A stretch of 64,000 nucleotides of DNA from assembly GCA_951406725.2 (NCBI GenBank), contig OX597818.1, positions 114,142,001-114,206,000 on the forward strand, given 5' to 3'. A program made the position numbers and the translations under genes. A model generated the notes under the pieces. It saw nothing but the letters and a program-made list of their open reading frames with translations, searched no databases and was not told the DNA's origin. Shown in pieces: positions 3,073 through 64,000 of this stretch. How positions within the stretch are numbered: the first letter of the stretch is position 1; the number at the start of each line of letters is the position of its first letter. This DNA comes from Octopus vulgaris (lineage: Eukaryota).

Positions 3073-3221
3073 TATATACAATATATATATATACATATAC
3101 AACAATCAAGGAACGGCCATAATAGGCCATTCACCCACTAGAAATAACAGCCAAAGCTTCAACCGCAAATAAAAGTTAATTCTGTAAACCAGGAGAAAAT
3201 TTAAAAAACATTTACCCTGTA

Positions 3222-3328
3222 ATTTCTTATACGATATACCGTTTCATCTGCTGATTAATGGTAAACTAACCTGATTAAATTAAATCAAGCCAATCTTCCA
3301 CAGGCCCTCAGATTCTTCAGTAAGAAAT
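3222..3328 (-). ncRNA. Type I hammerhead ribozyme (array unit L1)
   Basis: Reverse complement of the motif detailed at 4623-4729. Confidence 0.9.
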
Positions 3329-3712
3329 AGCCCAAGTCGGAACAGATATTTTCACGAGGCATTTCCGACCTTGCCAAGTTTATATCTGACCTAAAATTTT
3401 CAAATCGTCGCACTCGCGCCAAATTTATCGGCAGCAAATAAATATAAGCCGTCGATTCCATTACGGAATTAACCAGAAAATTCATAATTAATCAATATAG
3501 GGTGGCAAAAAAATTTTGTAGAATTCTTTTGCCACCAGCGGCCTAGTAGGAAAAAATTAAATAGTCATAGACCATTTTTAAGTTCAACAACAACAATCAA
3601 GGAACGGCCATAATAGGCCATTCACCCACTAGAAATAACAGCCAAAGCTTCAACCGCAAATAAAAGTTAATTCTGTAAACCAGGAGAAAATTTAAAAAAC
3701 ATTTACCCTGTA

Positions 3713-3819
3713 ATTTCTTATACGATATACCGTTTCATCTGCTGATTAATGGTAAACTAACCTGATTAAATTAAATCAAGCCAATCTTCCACAGGCCCTC
3801 AGATTCTTCAGTAAGAAAT
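3713..3819 (-). ncRNA. Type I hammerhead ribozyme (array unit L2)
   Basis: Same motif as 3222-3328. Confidence 0.9.
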
Positions 3820-4204
3820 AGCCCAAGTCGGAACAGATATTTTCACGAGGCATTTCCGACCTTGCCAAGTTTATATCTGACCTAAAATTTTCAAATCGTC
3901 GCACTCGCGCCAAATTTATCGGCAGCAAATAAATATAAGCCGTCGATTCCATTACGGAATTAACCAGAAAATTCATAATTAATCAATATAGGGTGGCAAA
4001 AAAAATTTTGTAGAATTCTTTTGCCACCAGCGGCCTAGTAGGAAAAAATTAAATAGTCATAGACCATTTTTAAGTTCAACATCAACAATCAAGGAACGGC
4101 CATAATAGGCCATTCACCCACTAGAAATAACAGCCAAAGCTTCAACCGCAAATAAAAGTTAATTCTGTAAACCAGGAGAAAATTTAAAAAACATTTACCC
4201 TGTA

Positions 4205-4311
4205 ATTTCTTATACGATATACCGTTTCATCTGCTGATTAATGGTAAACTAACCTGATTAAATTAAATCAAGCCAATCTTCCACAGGCCCTCAGATTCTT
4301 CAGTAAGAAAT
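4205..4311 (-). ncRNA. Type I hammerhead ribozyme (array unit L3)
   Basis: Same motif; this unit is truncated 33 nt further on, at the inversion junction. Confidence 0.9.
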
Positions 4312-4622
4312 AGCCCAAGTCGGAACAGATATTTTCACGAGGCAGTTCCTTGATTGTTGTTGTTGAACTTAAAAATGGTCTATGACTATTTAATTTTTTC
4401 CTACTAGGCCGCTGGTGGCAAAAGAATTCTACAAAATTTTTTTTGCCACCCTATATTGATTAATTATGAATTTTCTGGTTAATTCCGTAATGGAATCGAC
4501 GGCTTATATTTATTTGCTGCCGATAAATTTGGCGCGAGTGCGACGATTTGAAAATTTTAGGTCAGATATAAACTTGGCAAGGTCGGAAATGCCTCGTGAA
4601 AATATCTGTTCCGACTTGGGCT

Positions 4623-4729
4623 ATTTCTTACTGAAGAATCTGAGGGCCTGTGGAAGATTGGCTTGATTTAATTTAATCAGGTTAGTTTACCATTAATCAG
4701 CAGATGAAACGGTATATCGTATAAGAAAT
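4623..4729 (+). ncRNA. Type I hammerhead ribozyme (array unit R1)
   Basis: Stem I is ATTTCTTA/TAAGAAAT and the core is CTGAAGA (4631-4637). Stem II is ATCTG...CAGAT with a long internal hairpin, followed by GAAA (4706-4709). Stem III is the near-palindrome ACGGTA/TATCGT. The cleavage triplet is GUA, with the cut predicted after 4721. Confidence 0.92.
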
Positions 4730-5115
4730 TACAGGGTAAATGTTTTTTAAATTTTCTCCTGGTTTACAGAATTAACTTTTATTTGCGGTTGAAGCTTTGG
4801 CTGTTATTTCTAGTGGGTGAATGGCCTATTATGGCCGTTCCTTGATTGTTGATGTTGAAACTTAAAAATGGTCTATGACTATTTAATTTTTTCCTACTAG
4901 GCCGCTGGTGGCAAAAGAATTCTACAAAATTTTTTTTGCCACCCTATATTGATTAATTATGAATTTTCTGGTTAATTCCGTAATGGAATCGACGGCTTAT
5001 ATTTATTTGCTGCCGATAAATTTGGCGCGAGTGCGACGATTTGAAAATTTTAGGTCAGATATAAACTTGGCAAGGTCGGAAATGCCTCGTGAAAATATCT
5101 GTTCCGACTTGGGCT

Positions 5116-5222
5116 ATTTCTTACTGAAGAATCTGAGGGCCTGTGGAAGATTGGCTTGATTTAATTTAATCAGGTTAGTTTACCATTAATCAGCAGATGA
5201 AACGGTATATCGTATAAGAAAT
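5116..5222 (+). ncRNA. Type I hammerhead ribozyme (array unit R2)
   Basis: Same motif; predicted cut after 5214. Confidence 0.9.
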
Positions 5223-5606
5223 TACAGGGTAAATGTTTTTAAATTTTCTCCTGGTTTACAGAATTAACTTTTATTTGCGGTTGAAGCTTTGGCTGTTATT
5301 TCTAGTGGGTGAATGGCCTATTATGGCCGTTCCTTGATTGTTGATGTTAACTTAAAAATGGTCTATGACTATTTAATTTTTTCCTACTAGGCCGCTGGTG
5401 GCAAAAGAATTCTACAAAATTTTTTTTGCCACCCTATATTGATTAATTATGAATTTTCTGGTTAATTCCGTAATGGAATCGACGGCTTATATTTATTTGC
5501 TGCCGATAAATTTGGCGCGAGTGCGACGATTTGAAAATTTTAGGTCAGATATAAAACTTGGCAAGGTCGGAAATGCCTCGTGAAAATATCTGTTCCGACT
5601 TGGGCT

Positions 5607-5713
5607 ATTTCTTACTGAAGAATCTGAGGGCCTGTGGAAGATTGGCTTGATTTAATTTAATCAGGTTAGTTTACCATTAATCAGCAGATGAAACGGTATA
5701 TCGTATAAGAAAT
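5607..5713 (+). ncRNA. Type I hammerhead ribozyme (array unit R3)
   Basis: Same motif; predicted cut after 5705. Confidence 0.9.
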
Positions 5714-6099
5714 TACAGGGTAAATGTTTTTTAAATTTTCTCCTGGTTTACAGAATTAACTTTTATTTGCGGTTGAAGCTTTGGCTGTTATTTCTAGTGG
5801 GTGAATGGCCTATTATGGCCGTTCCTTGATTGTTGATGTTGAACTTAAAAATGGTCTATGACTATTTAATTTTTTCCTACTAGGCCGCTGGTGGCAAAAG
5901 AATTCTACAAAATTTTTTTTTGCCACCCTATATTGATTAATTATGAATTTTCTGGTTAATTCCGTAATGGAATCGACGGCTTATATTTATTTGCTGCCGA
6001 TAAATTTGGCGCGAGTGCGACGATTTGAAAATTTTAGGTCAGATATAAACTTGGCAAGGTCGGAAATGCCTCGTGAAAATATCTGTTCCGACTTGGGCT

Positions 6100-6206
6100 A
6101 TTTCTTACTGAAGAATCTGAGGGCCTGTGGAAGATTGGCTTGATTTAATTTAATCAGGTTAGTTTACCATTAATCAGCAGATGAAACGGTATATCGTATA
6201 AGAAAT
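6100..6206 (+). ncRNA. Type I hammerhead ribozyme (array unit R4)
   Basis: Same motif; predicted cut after 6198. Confidence 0.9.
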
Positions 6207-6593
6207 TACAGGGTAAATGTTTTTTAAATTTTCTCCTGGTTTACAGAATTAACTTTTACTTGCGGTTGAAGCTTTGGCTGTTATTTCTAGTGGGTGAATG
6301 GCCTATTATGGCCGTTCCTTGATTGTTGATGTTGAACTTAAAAATGGTCTATGACTATTTAATTTTTTTCCTACTAGGCCGCTGGTGGCAAAAGAATTCT
6401 ACAAAATTTTTTTTTGCCACCCTATATTGATTAATTATGAATTTTCTGGTTAATTCCGTAATGGAATCGACGGCTTATATTTATTTGCTGCCGATAAATT
6501 TGGCGCGAGTGCGACGATTTGAAAATTTTAGGTCAGATATAAACTTGGCAAGGTCGGAAATGCCTCGTGAAAATATCTGTTCCGACTTGGGCT

Positions 6594-6700
6594 ATTTCTT
6601 ACTGAAGAATCTGAGGGCCTGTGGAAGATTGGCTTGATTTAATTTAATCAGGTTAGTTTACCATTAATCAGCAGATGAAACGGTATATCGTATAAGAAAT
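6594..6700 (+). ncRNA. Type I hammerhead ribozyme (array unit R5)
   Basis: Same motif; predicted cut after 6692. Confidence 0.9.
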
Positions 6701-6925
6701 TACAGGGTAAATGTTTTTTAAATTTTCTCCTGGTTTACAGAATTAACTTTTATTTGCGGTTGAAGCTTTGGCTGTTATTTCTAGTGGGTGAATGGCCTAT
6801 TATGGCCGTTCCTTGATTGTTGTTGTTGAACTTAAAAATGGTCTATGACTATTTAAATTTTTTCCTACTAGGCCGCTGGTGGCAAAAGAATTCTACAAAA
6901 TTTTTTTTGCCACCCTATATTGATT

Positions 6926-6990
<65 letters not shown>

Positions 6991-12225: not shown

Positions 12226-13194
12226 GGTACTGTAAGTTTAGCGGGAATACTTGATAAGTGTAAGCACCTATGCCAGATAGTGGCAGAGGTGAGAGAATAT
12301 ATCAAACATAAATTGAAAACAGAACACAAAGGATATCGCAGTACACGTGTTTCAAGCTTTATAAACAATCTGTTAATGCATCAGCATAGGTATATCATTG
12401 ATATAAAAGATGGTTTAAAGCTCTCTTCAGCCGCAAACATTGTTAGTCCAAAATTACATCACAATATAATAAGTACTCGTAGTATTACCCATTATTATAG
12501 GTTTATCATATCCCTTTGAAAAGGTATATTTGCATAAAGGTTCGTTAGATTTCAAAAATCTGCCCATACTGTACCACCATTCAGCATAGAGTGAATGTTA
12601 AATAGATTGGATTGAGTTTATATTTAATTACCGTGTATAAGATAGAAAGAAAAAATAAAAGTATTCGTATGTGTAGTCATGATTGATGTTTTTGGAGACT
12701 GTAACTTGATCGGCGTTTGACAGTTATTAATAACAATGAACATATTGTTTTATGTAGCAAGGTCGATCAGTACATTAGCTGTCAAAGAATTGAATTTCCT
12801 AGCCTAAATGATTTGCATGGAAATGCAAACATTTGTGATTTTGCTTTCCTTTAGCACGTGTACCTTCGTGTGAAACGATTTATTCTATTCTAAACTTTCC
12901 CAGGAAGTTACATGGTTCTTTTCTTTCTTAGTCAACATATTCACAGGAATTATTATTCTCCTTTATTTAGTAATAACCCAGAGTTTGTTTACAAGCTTAA
13001 ATTTTTTGTTTGATTATTGTTCAAATCTTCATTAAATAGACTTATTTTTGCTTTTAAAGAGATGGTGTGTGGGTGTGTGTGAAAAAAGAAAATACGTACA
13101 ATATTTATTTTAATCCAAAAAATTAAAAGTTAGCCTCATTTTTGATATTTTTAGTGTCATTAATCATAATACTACATTTCTCATAACTATGATA

Positions 13195-14466
13195 TTAGGT
13201 TGTTCCGAAAATAATGGCCGACTTCAGAAACATAGTTTTATTCTGGAAAAATTAACAATAGAAATATTTTGATTTGTCAAATTATGACCCATGAACAGCT
13301 ATGCATCTCTCTCATCGATCAACGAGTTTATTTATGCTTCGTTGGCTTTGATGCTAAGAAATCTTTGAACGCTGATTCCACCTCTGGTTTGGACCTGAAA
13401 GTTTTATCACTTAAAAACGTGTTTAAATGCTTAAAAAAACGGTAGACAGTGGGTGAAAGATCAGGAGAATATGGAGGATGTGGTTTCGTCTCGTATTCCA
13501 AGTCTGTAAGTTTCTGTAGCGTCATTCTTGCAACATGTTGCTTTGCATTATCATGGAGCAGAATTGGGCCACACCGATTCACCAATGCAGGTCTCATTTT
13601 TTGCAAGTGAGCATGCATTTTAGCGAGTTGATTGCAGTAAACCTCTGCTGTAATGCTCTGATTGGCCTCCAGAGAGCTGTAATGGACACCACCAATTGCA
13701 GACCACCAGACTGTCACCGTAATCTTTTGCTGATGCAACTTTGGCTTTGGGAAATGTTTGGGGGACTCATCACGATCAAGCCATTGACCCGATCGTTTAC
13801 GGTTATAATAACGGATCCACTTTTCGTCACTAGTGACTATTCGGTTAAGAAAGGGATCATTGGTGTTTCGCAGAAAGAGCATCTTCAAGAAAGAGCACAC
13901 TTCAAAACGCCGAACTTTTTGATTTTCATTGAGCTCTTGCGTACCCCATTTATCGAGCTTTTTCACCCTACTAATCTTCTGCAGATTGCGTGAGACCAGT
14001 GTAATACCGAAATGAAGTGCATGAGTAATTTCTCTGACACTCTAACGTGGGTTTCGTTCAACAATTGCTTTCAACTGTTCATTGTTAAGACTGCACGACC
14101 GTCCTCTACCTTCTTCATCTTCAAGGCTCTCACCACCACTACGGAATTTTTGAAACCACCTTCGTACTGTCTGATCCCTTGTGGACCCCTCACCCCATGC
14201 TCTGTTGATATTGGTAGCGGTTTGGGAGGCATTGTGCCCAAGCTTGAACTCATGCGAGAAAAGTAAACGAAGGTCCTTTTTTGTCATGTTCATAATTAAG
14301 GACACCTCTTCAAGAATGTTTTCGAAATAAGTAGAAAATTATTAAAACGCATACATCAATTATTAACTATGTCGAAACTCCCCTAAAATATAATTAAAAT
14401 ACTATGATAAAATTACGTTTTAAAACATAACACTTAGAGCGGCCATTATTTTCAGAACAACCTTTA
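13195..14466 (-). mobile_element. Full-length decayed mariner (DD34D-type) transposon
   Basis: TIRs are TTAGGTTGTTCCGAAAATAATGGCCG / CGGCCATTATTTTCAGAACAACCT with TA flanks. The transposase is split over ORFs 14042-14305 (HTH, GRGRS) and 13328-13966 (TSDEKW, HDNA, HPPYSPDLSPTVY, in which the third catalytic D is mutated). Confidence 0.95.
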
Positions 14467-19912: not shown

Positions 19913-19958
19913 AACACAACGTTTCGGCTGATATACCCTCCAGCCTTCATCAGGTGTC
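19913..19958 (-). ncRNA. Minimal type I hammerhead within repeat 19860-20005 (same family as 29728-29900)
   Basis: Minus strand reads gacac-CTGATGA-a-GGCTG gagggtatat CAGCC-GAAA-CG-TT-gtgtt. Stem III is the palindrome AACGTT. Confidence 0.8.
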
Positions 19959-20482: not shown

Positions 20483-28930
<8,448 letters not shown>

Positions 28931-29777: not shown

Positions 29778-29823
29778 GACACCTGATGAAGGCTGGAGTG
29801 TATATCAGCCGAAACGTTGTATT
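29778..29823 (+). ncRNA. Minimal type I hammerhead
   Basis: gacac-CTGATGA-a-GGCTG gagtgtatat CAGCC-GAAA-CG-TT-gtatt. Stem I has one mismatch relative to the 19913 copy. Confidence 0.75.
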
Positions 29824-49812: not shown

Positions 49813-50016
49813 TAAAAGTCACAATACATGTATTAAAGCGCCACTAATAGTTTCATATGTTGAGAGAATTCCAACATATTCTTCAGGCGCAAACCACATA
49901 TCATACCGAACTAAAAAATTGAATAAATAGAAGAAACGGGATGAAGCTGAGAAAGCAGTATATAGAAAACGCAGACAGTAAACAACGGAAAGCGAAAAGC
50001 GGAAAAAGAAACTAAA

Positions 50017-51350
50017 GTGTCAAAAGGTAAAAGGTGCTATCCCCCTGAGGCCTTAAATGCTAAGTCTGGAAAGATAAAAGATACTATGATATCTATGAAG
50101 AAGTTAAATTCCTCGCATATTTATGATAGATTAGAATGCTTAGCTAAGAGAGAGGCGTTCATTACTTTAAAAGACTATTATCCACATTTTCATAATAATC
50201 CTTCCAGTGGATTGTTAAACCCAACGAGATCTGAAATTGGGCTAGTAGTTAAAAAATACTTAGGAGTATTAATATTAGAATTAAGGAAATTACTGGGCTT
50301 CAACAATAGAACAACAGTTTTACTGTAATAGATTGGTTTAAGAATATCAAGAATAAGAATAAGGCTAAATTTACCCAGTTTGATATCATAGACTTTTATC
50401 CCTTTGTATCTAGATCGCTACTTGATAAAGCTATTGAACTTACTAATTCATACGTTGAAATTGACCCTATAGATCTAGATTTTATCAGGCATACGAGAAC
50501 ACTTTTGTTCACTAAAGGTTTAGCATGAGTAAAAATGTTGCATAGTGATGAACTATTTGATGCATCCATGGGGTCATGTGATAGTGCTGATGTCTGTGAT
50601 CTTGTGGGTGTATTAAACACATTGAGATATAGATACCCAGCTCATGACATTGGCCTATACCGTGACGACGGTTTAGGTATTTCCCTTGGGTGTAATGGTT
50701 ACACCCTTGATAGATTTAGGAAGGAATTAATTTCAACATTTAATCTATTAGGACTTAAAATAACCGTAGCTATTAATCTCTGTATAGTTCATTACTTAGA
50801 TGGTTCCCTAGATTTAAACTCCTCGTATAAACCTTTCCATAAGCCTAATGAGAAACTCACATATATACATAAACAATCTTGTTACCTTCCTGTAGTATTT
50901 AAAAACCTGATAGCTAATATCAGTAACAGAGTGTCTAACCTCTCTTCTTCCAAAGAAATTTTCGACGAAGCTGCTCCCTATTATAAAAAGGCCTTAACCA
51001 AGAGTGATTTCAAATATAAATTGAAATATAAACCCTCTATTAATCAAAATATATACTTAGCAGATCTAGTGGTATCAAAGATAAAGTAGTACCTAACCAT
51101 TCTAGTATTAATCAGGATAATAAGTAACCAAAAAAATAGGACAACGAAAATTATTTGGTTCGCCCCTCTCTTTTCCCTTAGTATCAAAACTAACATTGGT
51201 AAAAAATTCCTGTCACTCCTAGACAAACACTCTCCAGCTACTCACAGATACAGGAAAATATTCAATAGGCGTTCTGTGAAATTATCATATAGCTTCCGCC
51301 GTTTAATACTATATATTAACAATATTAAATCTCTGAGCGACAAGTAAACG
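50017..51350 (+). pseudogene. Penelope-like element RT remnant
   Basis: AFITLKD..F.NNP..LLNP.RSEIG, FTQFDIIDFYP, FDASMGSCDSADVCDLVG, GLYRDDGLG, YLD, YKPFHKPN and IIWFAP..TNIGKKFLSLLDKH, with stops and frameshifts. Confidence 0.9.
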
Positions 51351-58573: not shown

Positions 58574-59369
58574 GGCCATCTGAAAAAACGCTATGAAAAA
58601 TACCGTTATATAAAGGGAAATTACTGTGTTATAATAAGATTAAAATTTCATAGTAAACATGTCTAGTGATACGCTCACATGTGCGCTCGCGGACCCACGT
58701 GCGTACTTATGCGTCACTATGAAAACGTACACATCTTCACTCGCATTTTTCGCCAAATATATACGTATATATATACAAACTCATACACGCAACATGCGTA
58801 CCGTAAAAGTTCATACATACGTCTATATACGCACAAGCGCAAGAAAAACAATGGTTAAAGGTAACAGAAAAAACATAAGGAAGTATACAAAGCATAAAAA
58901 CCACGTTCATATACGGACATGCCCTTATGCACTCATACACACACGCCCATATATGTACATACCCGTACATGTTTATATACGCATACACACACATGCATAT
59001 ACGAAAAATGAATATACATATGCCCCCCCACACACACACCAAAAAAACCTTAAAAAATGGAAAAGTACTAAGTAAAAACGTCTATATATATATATGCATT
59101 CTTATGCCCGCACACACGCACACATCTAAAACTGCCCACTCAGACATATTCATACACGTGTACAAATGAATCTATATACACGTCTATATAGGCACAGGTA
59201 AAAATGCAGGATAGAAAAGTACAGAAAAAATTATTGTGTGAAAATATAAAAATATATGAAATAATAAAAGGTATAATGAGATAAAAACTTTTTGGGACAT
59301 AATATAGAAAGCAAGTTCTATCTGTTTTCTTTAGGGGACTAAAAACGTAATAAAAATTTTGTCACATGT

Positions 59370-60530
59370 GGGCATGATCCGAAAAGTTCTGTCCTTGAGT
59401 TTAGACATGTAGTAGGGTCTAAACTGCTTTTCCTGATAAGCCATCTCTCCATGTCGCACAGACCGCACTTTCCGCTGCCGTTGGTGTAGGGCTTACATTT
59501 TGCCAAAATCTTCCAATGGATGTTATAATCGACACCTTTATCTTTTAAAGACCAAATATGATTAGATAATTTTGTCGCTTTTCTTTTGTTCCAGTGCCTA
59601 AACTCAAGGTGTGGTTATTGAACCTGGCCTTGAAATTACCCTCTGTAAGGCCCACGTATTTCTTCGTCGAAACGGTGTCTTTAGTGGTTATAGAGTCCAC
59701 GGTAGCTTCATAGATGATGGTCTCGGACATGCAAGCTCCATTTAGCGGGCACAATTTTTTATTCCTGCATGAACAGCTGTTTTCTTGTTGTGGTTTTTGT
59801 GTGTTATGTGTGATTATATTTTTAAAATTGGTAGTTGAACTAAAACTAATTTTTAAATTGTGTTTATTGAAGAGTTTCCTATAAGTATGGTTAACTGGAA
59901 AATGTCTATCTATCAGTGTTAAGAAATATTTACCTATATTGAAGGTCACCTCAGGTGAGTAAGGGGGTGTAAACCAGATGATCTTCCTATTTCTATTTTT
60001 CCTCTTCTTTACTGTTAGGCTAGTAACAGGTGTATATTTTATTTTTTCGCTAAAACCACTATCTTTTAAAGCCTTATTATAAACTGGGGCAACGCTATTA
60101 AAAATGTCCTTATCGGAGGAGAGGCTAGAAATTCTCTTACTAATATTTTAAACTAAATTTTTGAATACTATAGGGGGATGGCATGAACCTACATTAATAT
60201 AACTAAGTCTATCATTGGGCTTCCTATAATGCTTATAAATATTCTTATTTAGATCTAAGGAAACGTCTAGGAAATTGACAACCGTCAGGTTAGTATCTAT
60301 AGCTATACTAAGTCCGAAGTATTTCATTAATTGGATAATATCCTTCCTAAAACGATCCTGTGCTGGTCCATTTGTATTAGCGGTTAAAGCGAGGGCATCA
60401 TCTTTGTAGATGGCGAAATATACGTCAGGAAATGTCTTACCTAAAGTATCTAAGAGAAAAAATCCAATAATATCGCAAATGCCTGCTGCATCATATGACC
60501 CCATGCTCACATCGAAAGCACCCTCTGTTT
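59370..60530 (-). pseudogene. Penelope-like element remnant: RT C-terminal half plus GIY-YIG endonuclease
   Basis: SMGSYDAAGICDIIG, IYKDDAL, VNFLDV and HPP, then FNIGKYFLTLIDRHF, CSCR..CPLNGAC, IIYEATV...KYVGLTE..FKARFNNH and a downstream CGLC. Confidence 0.92.
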
Positions 60531-60578
60531 ACATAATATTGAGGTATCTTTCTTTCTTTTGTTATCTTACCGTTTTTA

Positions 60579-60652
<74 letters not shown>

Positions 60653-60777: not shown

Positions 60778-62613
60778 ATAGGAGAAGGAAAGATCCAGAG
60801 ACGGGAAGACAGAGGAAAAAGATCGCCAACGGTACACACGAGGTCAGTGAATGTCTGTGTAGGTGTAAGTGGTGGCGACACAAGTGGGAAAATGGAAGTA
60901 GAAGAAGAAAGGTAAAAAAGGACGAGGAAAAAGTGAAAGAGTCACGGACAAATTTTTTTGATTTCCAATCACGATTTCAGTGGCGTACTCCGGAAGAATG
61001 GTAACAGTAATCCGTAGGCGTAAAAATCAAGGAATTGGTATCCAAGGCACTCAGAGAGCCGGGGTCCGTGTGAGCGTGCGGTATGTAAAGTTAATCCAAA
61101 CAAGAAAGCACAAAAAATACAACAATGCGAGGACGTGGAACAAATATAGTATTATTGGACGCTCAGGAAAGAAGGAAAGAAGAAGAGTTTAACGTTTCGA
61201 GGGGAGCTTTTCGTCGGAAACATAGGAGAAGGAAAGGTCCAGAGAAGGGAAGGCAGAGGAAAAAAATCGCCAACGATATATATACAATTTAAAAATAGGA
61301 TAAAATCTTCATAAGAATTTATCAAGTAGTTAGCATGAAAACCTCATAAGACAAAAAATCCACATAAGAAAAAAATTATATATATATACATACATAATAC
61401 ACACACACACACACACGCAGATACACACACACACACACACACACACATACACACACACACAAACATATATATACGGAGCAAATAACTCAGGAGTAAAAAT
61501 AATTTTTAAAAAATAATTTGCGAAGATAGCAAAAAAGCATTAAATAGCTTTACGTTTTATTTACACTTTTTTCAACGCTTTCTTCCGTTATCGGATTTAT
61601 CAAAAAGTGATTTAAAGTTAGATTTCTTTGGTCTTTTTATATGTAAAAAATTTGTGGTGTTTGCCAAGCATGGGAGAAGAAAGAAAAGAAAGTTGTTTTG
61701 AGAAAGGAGTGGGGAAGAGGCATACAAAATTGGTATGGTCAGACTTCTCTGTTTAGTATTTAGTGACTTTTTTATGGTGGGGAAGGAAAAACAATTTTTG
61801 TATTTGAATTGATTTTAACTGAAAAACCAGATGTTACTTTTGGCTTTCTTTAATAAAAATTATAATTGCATTTCCATGTCTTGTTTCTTTATGCTTTTCT
61901 GTTCATTAATGTGGTGGAGGTATAGAAGTCTGTTTTTGTAATAGTGTGATAACAGTTTTGTAGCAGTCAGGATTATTAACTGAAAACCCCAGATGTTCTT
62001 GACTTTCTTCAGTAGAAATCATAATTGCATTTCTAGGTCTTGTTCTTTTGTATTCAATAAAGAATAGTTGTATGGATGTGATCTACTTCTTTTGATTGAA
62101 TTTCTAGATGTTTTTGAAATAGTAATTTCAAAAACCAAACCACACACCACCAAACCATGCCACGCCACACCACATCACACCACCCTGCACACACAAGCAT
62201 TGACCACTTCCCAGAACCCACACCACCATCTACATGCCTACACATGCACCCCACCCACACGTCAAGGTCACCAGCCCCAATCCACACGCACACGCTCTCA
62301 CATACACACGAACGCGCACCTTCGTTTTGAGATCAACACTACTTTATTATCTCCCCTTCTTCCTAGCCCACCTGTCGACTTCTAGCCACTAAAACTTCTT
62401 ATATTTTCTCGTATTCCTTTCTGTTGAAGAGAGTAAGCTCGGAACGTAAAATACTTTCTCCTCTTCTCGAGCTTTAAACAAATACACCTGTTTGTTATTT
62501 ACACATCTAACTTCATCGTTTGTTTTTTGTTTGTAAATTTCAACTATATATATGCATATATACATATGCAAGCAGACATACACACACACACATACACATA
62601 TAAACACACAGAC

Positions 62614-62684
<71 letters not shown>

Positions 62685-62687
<3 letters not shown>

Positions 62688-63133
62688 CAAAATTAAGGAA
62701 CGGCCATAATAGGCCGTTCAACCCACTAGAAATAGCAGCCAAGGCTTCAACCGCAAAACAATATTAATTCCGTAAACCAGGAGAAAATTTAAAAAAACAT
62801 TTACCCTGTAATACTTTATACAATGCATCGTTTCGTCTATTTTTTAATGGTAAATCAACCTGATTAAATTAAATCAAGCTAATCTTCCATAGGCCAATAG
62901 ATTCATCAGTAAAGTAAGCCAGACGGGACAGATATTTTCACGAGGCAGCACCATTACTGTCTCGGCTATATCTGACCTAAAATTTTCAAATCATCGTACT
63001 CGTGCCAAATTTATCGGCAGCAAATATAAGCTGCCGATTCCATTTCGGAATTAAACAGAAAATTCATAATTAATCAATATAGGGTGGCAAAAAATTCAGC
63101 AGAAATTATTTGCCACCAGCAAATATTGATTAA
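62685..63133 (-). mobile_element. Diverged solo copy of the ~492-bp HHR unit
   Basis: Colinear with 3099-3540, with many substitutions; flanked by (TA)n on both sides. Confidence 0.95.
62812..62916 (-). ncRNA. Type I hammerhead ribozyme (solo copy)
   Basis: TACTTTA-CTGATGA-aTCTATT...AATAGAc-GAAA-CGATG CATTG-TA-TAAAGTA. The stems are conserved by compensatory changes relative to the array. Confidence 0.88.
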
Positions 63134-63143
63134 TATATATTGA

Positions 63144-63191
<48 letters not shown>

Positions 63192-63211
63192 CATATATAT
63201 ATATATAAATA

Positions 63212-63262
<51 letters not shown>

Positions 63263-63448
63263 TAAGCAATTAAGGGTTTAGCAACGAATTGCCTCATCAC
63301 ACACCCAATTTAGAAATAGCAGTCAAAGGGTTATAGCTATTCTTTCTACTAAAAGGGAGATCTCAGTAAAAACACAGCACTTGAAAGGCAAACACAGACA
63401 GGTAAGAGAGAATGAAATGACGCCAATCTATCATACAAGTTTAAGTCA

Positions 63449-63539
63449 CCTACGGACGTACGTTTCGAAATCAAGTTTTAGGAAAGCATAAGAATTAGAT
63501 AATTCTACCTTACCCAACTTCTTTTCTCATCAGCGTAGG
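63449..63539 (-). ncRNA. Canonical type I hammerhead ribozyme (left arm of the palindrome)
   Basis: CCTACG-CTGATGA-GAAA...TTTC-GAAA-CGTACG-TC-CGTAGG. Stem I is perfect, stem III is the palindrome ACGTACGT and the triplet is GUC. Confidence 0.9.
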
Positions 63540-63719
63540 ATACTACAATGATGAATAATTGTATATTAAATTTTGAGATACTAGAAGGCATCATCTCAAA
63601 TCAGTGTCAGAGCGAGCTAAAGCATTACATTAAATGCTTTAGCTCGCTCTGACACTGAGTTGAGATGATGCCTTCTAGTATCTCAAAATTTAATATACAA
63701 TTATTCATCATTGTAGTAT

Positions 63720-63810
63720 CCTACGGTGATGAGAAAAGAAGTTGGGTAAGGTAGAATTATCTAATTCTTATGCTTTCTTAAAACTTGATTTCGAAACGTA
63801 CCTCCGTAGG
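63720..63810 (+). ncRNA. Mutated hammerhead (right arm of the palindrome)
   Basis: Same motif, but the core reads GTGATGA (C3G) and stem III reads CGTACCTC; probably inactive. Confidence 0.6.
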
Positions 63811-64000
63811 TGACTTAAAATTGTATGATAGATTGCCGTCATTTCATTCTCTCTTACCTGTCTGTGTTTGCCTTTCAAGTGCTGTGTTTTTACTGAGATC
63901 TCCCTTTTAGTAGAAAGAATAGCTATAACCCTTTGACTGCTATTTCTAAATTCGGTGTGTGGTGAGGCAATTCGTTGCTAAACCCTTAATTGCTTAGTAT

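Follow-up and report, generated by a model that had tools for sequence, protein, structure and literature searches.

Animal non-LTR retrozymes are described as low-GC, non-coding tandem units that each carry a type I hammerhead ribozyme and that occur in thousands of copies, from monomers to multimers, with Penelope-like elements (PLEs) alongside (PMC7229834; 10.64898/2026.07.22.740005). Cleavage by invertebrate retrozymes is reported to be efficient (PMC7229834), and Li et al. 2026 (10.64898/2026.07.22.740005) observed in vitro cleavage for only one of nine predicted Xenopus retrozymes, so that a motif is no proof of activity. Hammerheads also occur within PLE pLTRs (PMC4209133), and the Hydra clade of endonuclease-bearing PLEs has hammerheads, targets (TA)n and leaves 5'-truncated copies in tandem and inverted arrangement, tailed at one end (PMC8557442). 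The dimer logic for a palindromic stem III is already published (PMC4209133; legend of Figure S8 in PMC3088659), and compensatory change has already been reported among Penelope-associated hammerhead families. Since earlier publications cover the class as well as its covariation and palindromic stem III, the advance made by the octopus locus described here is incremental. Literature searches returned no paper on cephalopod retrozymes, and the main text of a 2026 octopus repeat annotation contains no occurrence of 'hammerhead', 'ribozyme' or 'retrozyme'.

The locus lies near the end of a 64,000-nucleotide stretch of Octopus vulgaris DNA (assembly GCA_951406725.2, contig OX597818.1, positions 114,142,001 to 114,206,000; hereafter the window). 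It is a 462-bp non-coding insertion flanked by two (TA)n tracts (the solo copy; Table 1), and the same window contains an array of another subfamily with a period of about 492-493 bp and eight hammerheads, also flanked by (TA)n tracts. The array contains no ORF of at least 120 aa, a 124-aa stop-to-stop frame at 62389-62763 runs from the 3' end of the solo unit through the (TA)n tract, and the surrounding 2-kb bins have 33-36% GC. Short non-coding units in tandem, at least two in a row and each with a hammerhead, together with the absence of ORFs, low GC and many dispersed copies, correspond to the layout of non-LTR retrozymes. By sequence criteria the element is thus an animal non-LTR retrozyme, its RNA-level cycle being modelled on that of known retrozymes.

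The resemblance to the described systems is incomplete. At 484-493 bp the octopus unit exceeds the length of the RNAs tested in PMC7229834 (170-400 nt), although it stays within the 51-972 bp range of 10.64898/2026.07.22.740005; its loop 2 of about 58 nt with a conserved hairpin sets it apart from animal retrozymes. Inverted arms and (TA)n targeting are absent from the passages on animal retrozymes that were compared. A mismatch at the base of helix II also occurs among animal non-LTR retrozymes in the axolotl HHR_Amex2 (U-U). Relative to the pLTR hammerheads presented in PMC4209133, the octopus motif is not minimal, with a stem III of 3 bp plus a tetraloop, and has neither the extra base before 10.1, nor G10.1-C11.1, nor an attached ORF. 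The features of the Hydra-clade PLEs listed above are all shared; unlike those elements as described in PMC8557442, the octopus unit is non-protein-coding and has no detectable homology to two intact Hydra-type families sampled. The repeat-type hammerheads of Aedes aegypti (PMC3088659) likewise have a palindromic stem III with loop III, there giving a 10-bp dimer stem, but differ in sequence and host, and the dimer conformation is hypothetical in both.

Table 1. Coordinates of the solo copy, its hammerhead motif and related elements, counted from the first letter of the window
Feature	Position	Strand	Remarks
Truncated solo-type insertion	62685-63146	-	about 90% of one 484-bp unit plus a short inverted tail scrap
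Inverted tail scrap of solo insertion	about 63121-63146		
(TA)n tract at the element's 3' junction	62617-62684		
(TA)n tract at the opposite junction	63147-63261		shared with the neighbouring fold-back hammerhead element
Type I hammerhead motif, solo	62812-62916	-	
Solo stem I	62910-62916 with 62812-62818	-	TACTTTA (62916-62910) / TAAAGTA (62818-62812)
Solo core	CTGATGA 62909-62903; GAAA 62834-62831	-	
Solo stem II	62902-62896 with 62841-62835	-	ATCTATT (62902-62896) / AATAGAC (62841-62835); the A10.1-C11.1 mismatch is the first pair
Solo palindromic stem III and loop	62821-62830	-	
Predicted cut site (GUA)	between 62819 and 62818	-	inferred from hammerhead numbering
Loop 2	62842-62895	-	about 58 nt long; its fold comprises a helix of 4 bp and a hairpin of 12-14 bp
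Predicted 4-bp stem I extension past an internal loop	62920-62923 with 62805-62808 (span 62805-62923)	-	RNAalifold columns 87-90 with 207-210
17-nt motif near the 3' end	62727-62743	-	also present in hammerhead-carrying repeat families that do not otherwise align
Array of the other subfamily	3104-6927		minus strand, about 2.5 units (3104-4345); plus strand, 5.2 units (to 6927); the two sets lie back to back
Neighbouring fold-back element, other family	63262-63997		97.8% inverted repeat

Both copies contain the type I hammerhead elements CUGANGA ... GAAA ... UH in the context of three helices, with stem I open. In the solo copy (minus strand), GAAA (62834-62831) is followed by CGATGCATTG and then by U16.1-A17 at 62820-62819; the array hammerhead reads ATTTCTTA CTGAAGA ATCTG ... 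CAGAT GAAA CGGTATATCG TA TAAGAAAT and is identical in 8/8 array hammerheads. The canonical R10.1-Y11.1 pair closing stem II is replaced by A-C in the solo copy. All strings, stems, core letters and the A-C mismatch quoted in a preliminary description of this DNA are present base for base, and the core differs, as that description had it, only at N7 (CTGAAGA in the array, CTGATGA in the solo copy), a position that takes all four bases across genomic copies. Rfam at gathering score has no match in the whole window, probably because loop 2 is so long, and a short-loop hammerhead pattern missed the motif for the same reason.

The solo copy had been presented as a diverged copy extending over 62685..63133, which misleads on the first count and needs correction on the second. 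The insertion continues to 63146, with alignable unit homology covering 62691-63120. It is 83.4-84.0% identical to the array units over about 430 bp; its 14 best genome matches (window copy included), however, are 98-100% identical, and several of them sit in inverted arrays or in tandem with a 484-bp period, which rules out a decayed array unit. The solo copy belongs instead, in truncated form, to a second subfamily, which is young. Because this copy contains a single hammerhead, it is probably unable to release unit-length RNA by itself.

The family is large. A 22-mer from loop 2 has 2,890 exact genome matches (control 0) and the 3' half of the motif has 3,181 (control 1), giving an estimate of about 3,000 genomic units in many subfamilies. 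The alignment comprised 226 copies from 99 insertions over a 246-nt region, the insertions being chosen through sequence similarity, by following a loop-2 anchor along the chromosomes, or with patterns that contain the core; the copies fall into 26 clusters in two well-supported clades. Both ends were covered in 90 of the 99 insertions, and (TA)n borders 76 of these on each side, 13 on one side and one on neither. The earlier proposal that the unit is a dispersed mobile element inserting in (TA)n thus holds, with 89/90 insertions touching (TA)n. Inversions occur in 57 of these 90 insertions and lengths above 600 bp in 68; the insertion ends recur (by eye) at two fixed unit positions, and insertions are dispersed across many chromosomes. 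Such tandem and inverted truncated copies, with a tail at one end and a microsatellite target, have the characteristics of Penelope-like insertions. Among 92 insertions, A>G changes (25) show no excess over T>C changes (25) that would indicate an A-to-I editing footprint. No RNA record is found among the listed carriers of the unit; contigs of four runs, two of them from other organisms, cover it, and these assembled contigs are blind to transcription or circles. Loose-end contigs from another organism suggest a family variant with a canonical G10.1-C11.1 and a four-pair stem II, its halves coming from separate contigs.

Pairing in the hammerhead stems is preserved despite sequence change. The solo and array motifs differ at 13 of 34 stem positions, keep 16 of 17 pairs and have five pairs changed on both sides; random placement of 13 changes keeps 9.7 pairs on average and reaches at least 16 with p of about 3e-4 (about 7e-3 with 80% transitions). 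The comparison was extended to 22 representatives (19 of them standing for clusters, the others being the solo copy, the array and an additional copy; five single-insertion clusters were left out). Unguided RNAalifold on these sequences returns the three-way junction, the stem I extension and a long loop-2 hairpin. Across the 17 hammerhead pairs in 22 representatives, 96.2% of cells are paired, versus 88.6% in shuffled and 35-50% in slid controls, and two-sided changes occur in eight pairs (four in stem I, two each in stems II and III). Because relatives share changes, a tree-aware null was also run, in which an equal number of changes was simulated along the tree from non-stem columns: it yields a mean of 1.1-1.2 two-sided pairs, and 0/2000 simulations reach eight. 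The covariation expected among aligned genomic copies is present, although the independent compensatory events are few, about 6-9 by our own reading of the tree and pair table. Most stem I changes fall on one deep branch, and 27 purely position-sampled insertions share no stem I variant. Intermediates exist among the copies, with a stem I lying between both forms and a TACA centre in stem III. The loop-2 hairpin (12 pairs), absent from the preliminary description, is paired in 99.6% of cells with only one-sided wobble changes, and its pair retention is moderately beyond the tree null (30 and 80 of 2000).

The catalytic core was compared with its surroundings, a check proposed beforehand. Variants shared by at least two insertions occur at 0/11 core sites and at 67/177 flank and loop sites (one-sided Fisher p = 0.007), whereas private alleles do not spare the core (0.36 per site, against 0.36-0.44 outside). 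In 75 insertions not chosen by core pattern, shared variants affect 0/11 core and 61/175 other sites (p = 0.011), while the contrast of shared with private variants within the core alone (0 and 3) is not significant in this subset (p = 0.25). On the tree of 22 representatives, parsimony places no change in the 11 core columns, 130 in 150 other columns and 42 in 34 stem columns; the stems thus change no more slowly than the flanks. A or C, never G, occupies position 17. An invariant core among inherited variants, together with covariation beyond shuffles, slid controls and the tree-aware null, bears out the earlier view that the fold was under selection between subfamilies.

Stem III requires a separate reading. 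The three changes assigned to it in the preliminary description are present, but two of them are one-sided wobble changes and the two-sided one lies at the palindrome centre, which is the loop in the monomer. Since the monomer cannot pair that centre, a double hammerhead is the only setting in which the A-U to G-C swap is meaningful. The solo palindrome is predicted to form a 12-bp dimer duplex of -14.5 kcal/mol, compared with +1.1 for the monomer hairpin, and a palindromic stem III centre is found (by eye) in five of six other hammerhead families of the genome. One spreading subfamily has a broken TACA centre with a predicted duplex of -7.1, which speaks against a strict need for the dimer, as does the efficient cleavage reported for invertebrate retrozymes (PMC7229834). 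The predicted monomer folds are stable (z of -3.5 and -3.6), and in the minimum-energy monomer folds the core is predicted to pair with the stem III strand, leaving stem III unformed.

The 10.1-11.1 pair is A-U, G-U, A-C or U-U across copies, A-A also occurring; it is unpaired in 9/22 representatives and G-C in 1/226 copies. A-C is present in both clades, and since the A-C subfamily is young and widespread, the mismatch is no block to spread. A literature search found no test of A-C at this position; U-U occurs there in active natural hammerheads (PMC3088659; PMC7229834).

Several other hammerhead families, including that of the neighbouring fold-back element, have the 17-nt 3' motif too, at a distance of about 45-56 nt from the (TA)n junction, and the motif is likely to serve as a recognition handle. 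It has 31,175 genome matches, not all of them from this hammerhead superfamily; roughly half or more of 70 motif loci represent (by eye) an older repeat with no nearby (TA)n or hammerhead. This decayed repeat carries the motif in a different context, at one locus as a 107-bp tandem array.

No autonomous partner emerged from the families sampled. The element itself has no RT and GIY-YIG ORF between pLTRs of the kind that defines an autonomous PLE. A tblastn search with 42 Penelope-like proteins against the 70 motif loci detected no Penelope ORF and only one weak 20-aa match. Intact Penelope-like ORFs ending in (TA)n are present in the genome, some in tandem or inverted layout. The sample of possible partners comprised three Hydra-type families, two of them intact (a 708-aa ORF and a 727-aa frame) and the third decayed, together with several that we take to be Neptune-like (781-, 776- and 784-aa frames). 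The 708-aa ORF has the Hydra-clade motifs RWK, DKT and CxCX5C and lies in 2.59-kb tandem units; the second Hydra-type family is 44.7% identical to it. Among these sampled Hydra-type and Neptune-like families (best candidates scored), none shares unit sequence or ends in the 3' motif; the unit as BLAST query and an HMM built from 20 3' ends of the superfamily matched only apparent separate neighbouring insertions. A Penelope family with a 781-aa frame has at its 3' end a minimal hammerhead-like motif with a U3-A8 covariant core (by eye), a core type described for Schistosoma elements (PMC4209133).

The window contains several other repeats. A frameshifted non-LTR retrotransposon at 25051-28860 (minus strand), presumably R4/Dong-type, retains ORF pieces with RT and restriction-like endonuclease motifs beside a 4-kb (ATT)n tract (20800-24875), and a 237-aa frame at 13328-14041 (minus strand) resembles what we take to be a Tc1/mariner transposase fragment. 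The fold-back element has its own type I hammerhead, with an intact core at 63533 (minus strand) and a damaged core in one arm, a palindromic stem III, a GUC site, the same 3' motif and a tandem copy elsewhere in the genome. A third long-loop type I motif at about 12300-12450 (minus strand, core at 12430) has a perfect palindromic stem III, lies upstream of (TG)n and (TA)n and is unalignable to the unit; when the unit is globally aligned with other hammerhead families of the window, the result is no better than with shuffles. Two copies of a minimal hammerhead-like motif in which an extra base precedes a 5-bp stem II occur at 19922-19953 (minus) and 29783-29814 (plus), adjoining (AAT)n or (TAT)n tracts, the first with a complete stem I. 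A broken copy of a very abundant Hydra-type Penelope element (18,494 candidates, many with intact 717-aa frames) occupies about 58600-60580 (minus strand); the 3' repeat of this element has a hammerhead-like motif with core CCGAAGA in young copies. An older Hydra-type family remnant (49851-49886, minus; 49966-51300, plus) has a hammerhead-like motif of its own. An assignment of the window's PLE remnants to Nematis was dropped after a motif check against section 11 of PMC8557442.

We consider it probable (about 0.8) that the solo copy is a truncated insertion of a non-coding repeat of about 490 bp, that this repeat is a non-LTR retrozyme whose predicted self-cleaving hammerhead has kept its core and pairing from one subfamily to another, and that a Penelope-like enzyme acting in trans is the likely agent copying it into (TA)n. 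Arrays would be transcribed, and the predicted hammerheads would cut the transcript into RNAs one unit long, acting as monomers whose stem III of 3 bp is weak or, through the 12-nt palindrome, as a double hammerhead. These RNAs might circularise, and a Penelope-type RT with GIY-YIG endonuclease would nick (TA)n and copy them. If only RNAs that still fold and cut can found new subfamilies, changes shared between insertions should keep the fold while later private ones need not.

The units could instead be the pLTRs of an unfound autonomous PLE, in which the hammerhead is selected while the short copies are 5'-truncated by-products. Truncation, inversion and a one-end tail are typical of Penelope insertions (PMC8557442), and Li et al. 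derive retrozymes from pLTRs (10.64898/2026.07.22.740005). We regard this origin as quite unlikely, given 484-493-bp units lying head to tail with no ORF between them in many independent insertions, the single weak match from the protein search of the motif loci and the lack of any sampled ORF-bearing family that shares the unit. Conservation of the fold as a protein-binding or packaging structure, with a solo-subfamily ribozyme that no longer cuts owing to A-C at the base of stem II, would fit the A-C, U-U and A-A combinations at 10.1-11.1, the conservation of non-catalytic helices and the predicted misfolding of monomers. It leaves unexplained why 11 catalytic positions are fixed while N7 and H17 vary just as catalysis allows, and the natural activity of hammerheads with U-U at 10.1-11.1, cited above, also counts against it; we judge it very improbable.

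Descent by DNA recombination of a satellite, with the covariation reflecting merely the shared ancestry of two lineages, would account for the several two-sided changes that map to a single deep branch. This explanation is rejected by the tree-aware null and is at odds with the dispersal on many chromosomes, the fixed ends at (TA)n and the inversions; it is largely refuted and has next to no chance of being correct. A broader extension of the retrozyme reading, unlikely on present grounds, would unite at least six unalignable hammerhead RNAs in one superfamily whose members share a 3' handle, a folded body and a stem III self-complementary through its centre, and for which no autonomous parent related in sequence survives. 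If so, the superfamily would form a lineage of RNA parasites, structured and probably circular, that evolves at the RNA level; selection would favour a weak 10.1-11.1 pair and a stem III dependent on dimers because these slow cutting and leave multimers to be copied by borrowed Penelope enzymes.

The octopus family offers a clean population-level case of a retrozyme hammerhead under purifying selection during transposition, and it bears on the question of whether Penelope-associated hammerheads are functional or passengers. Its natural variants (A-U, G-U, A-C and U-U at 10.1-11.1; TATA, TACA and TGCA centres in stem III) form a ready set for testing monomer against dimer cleavage.
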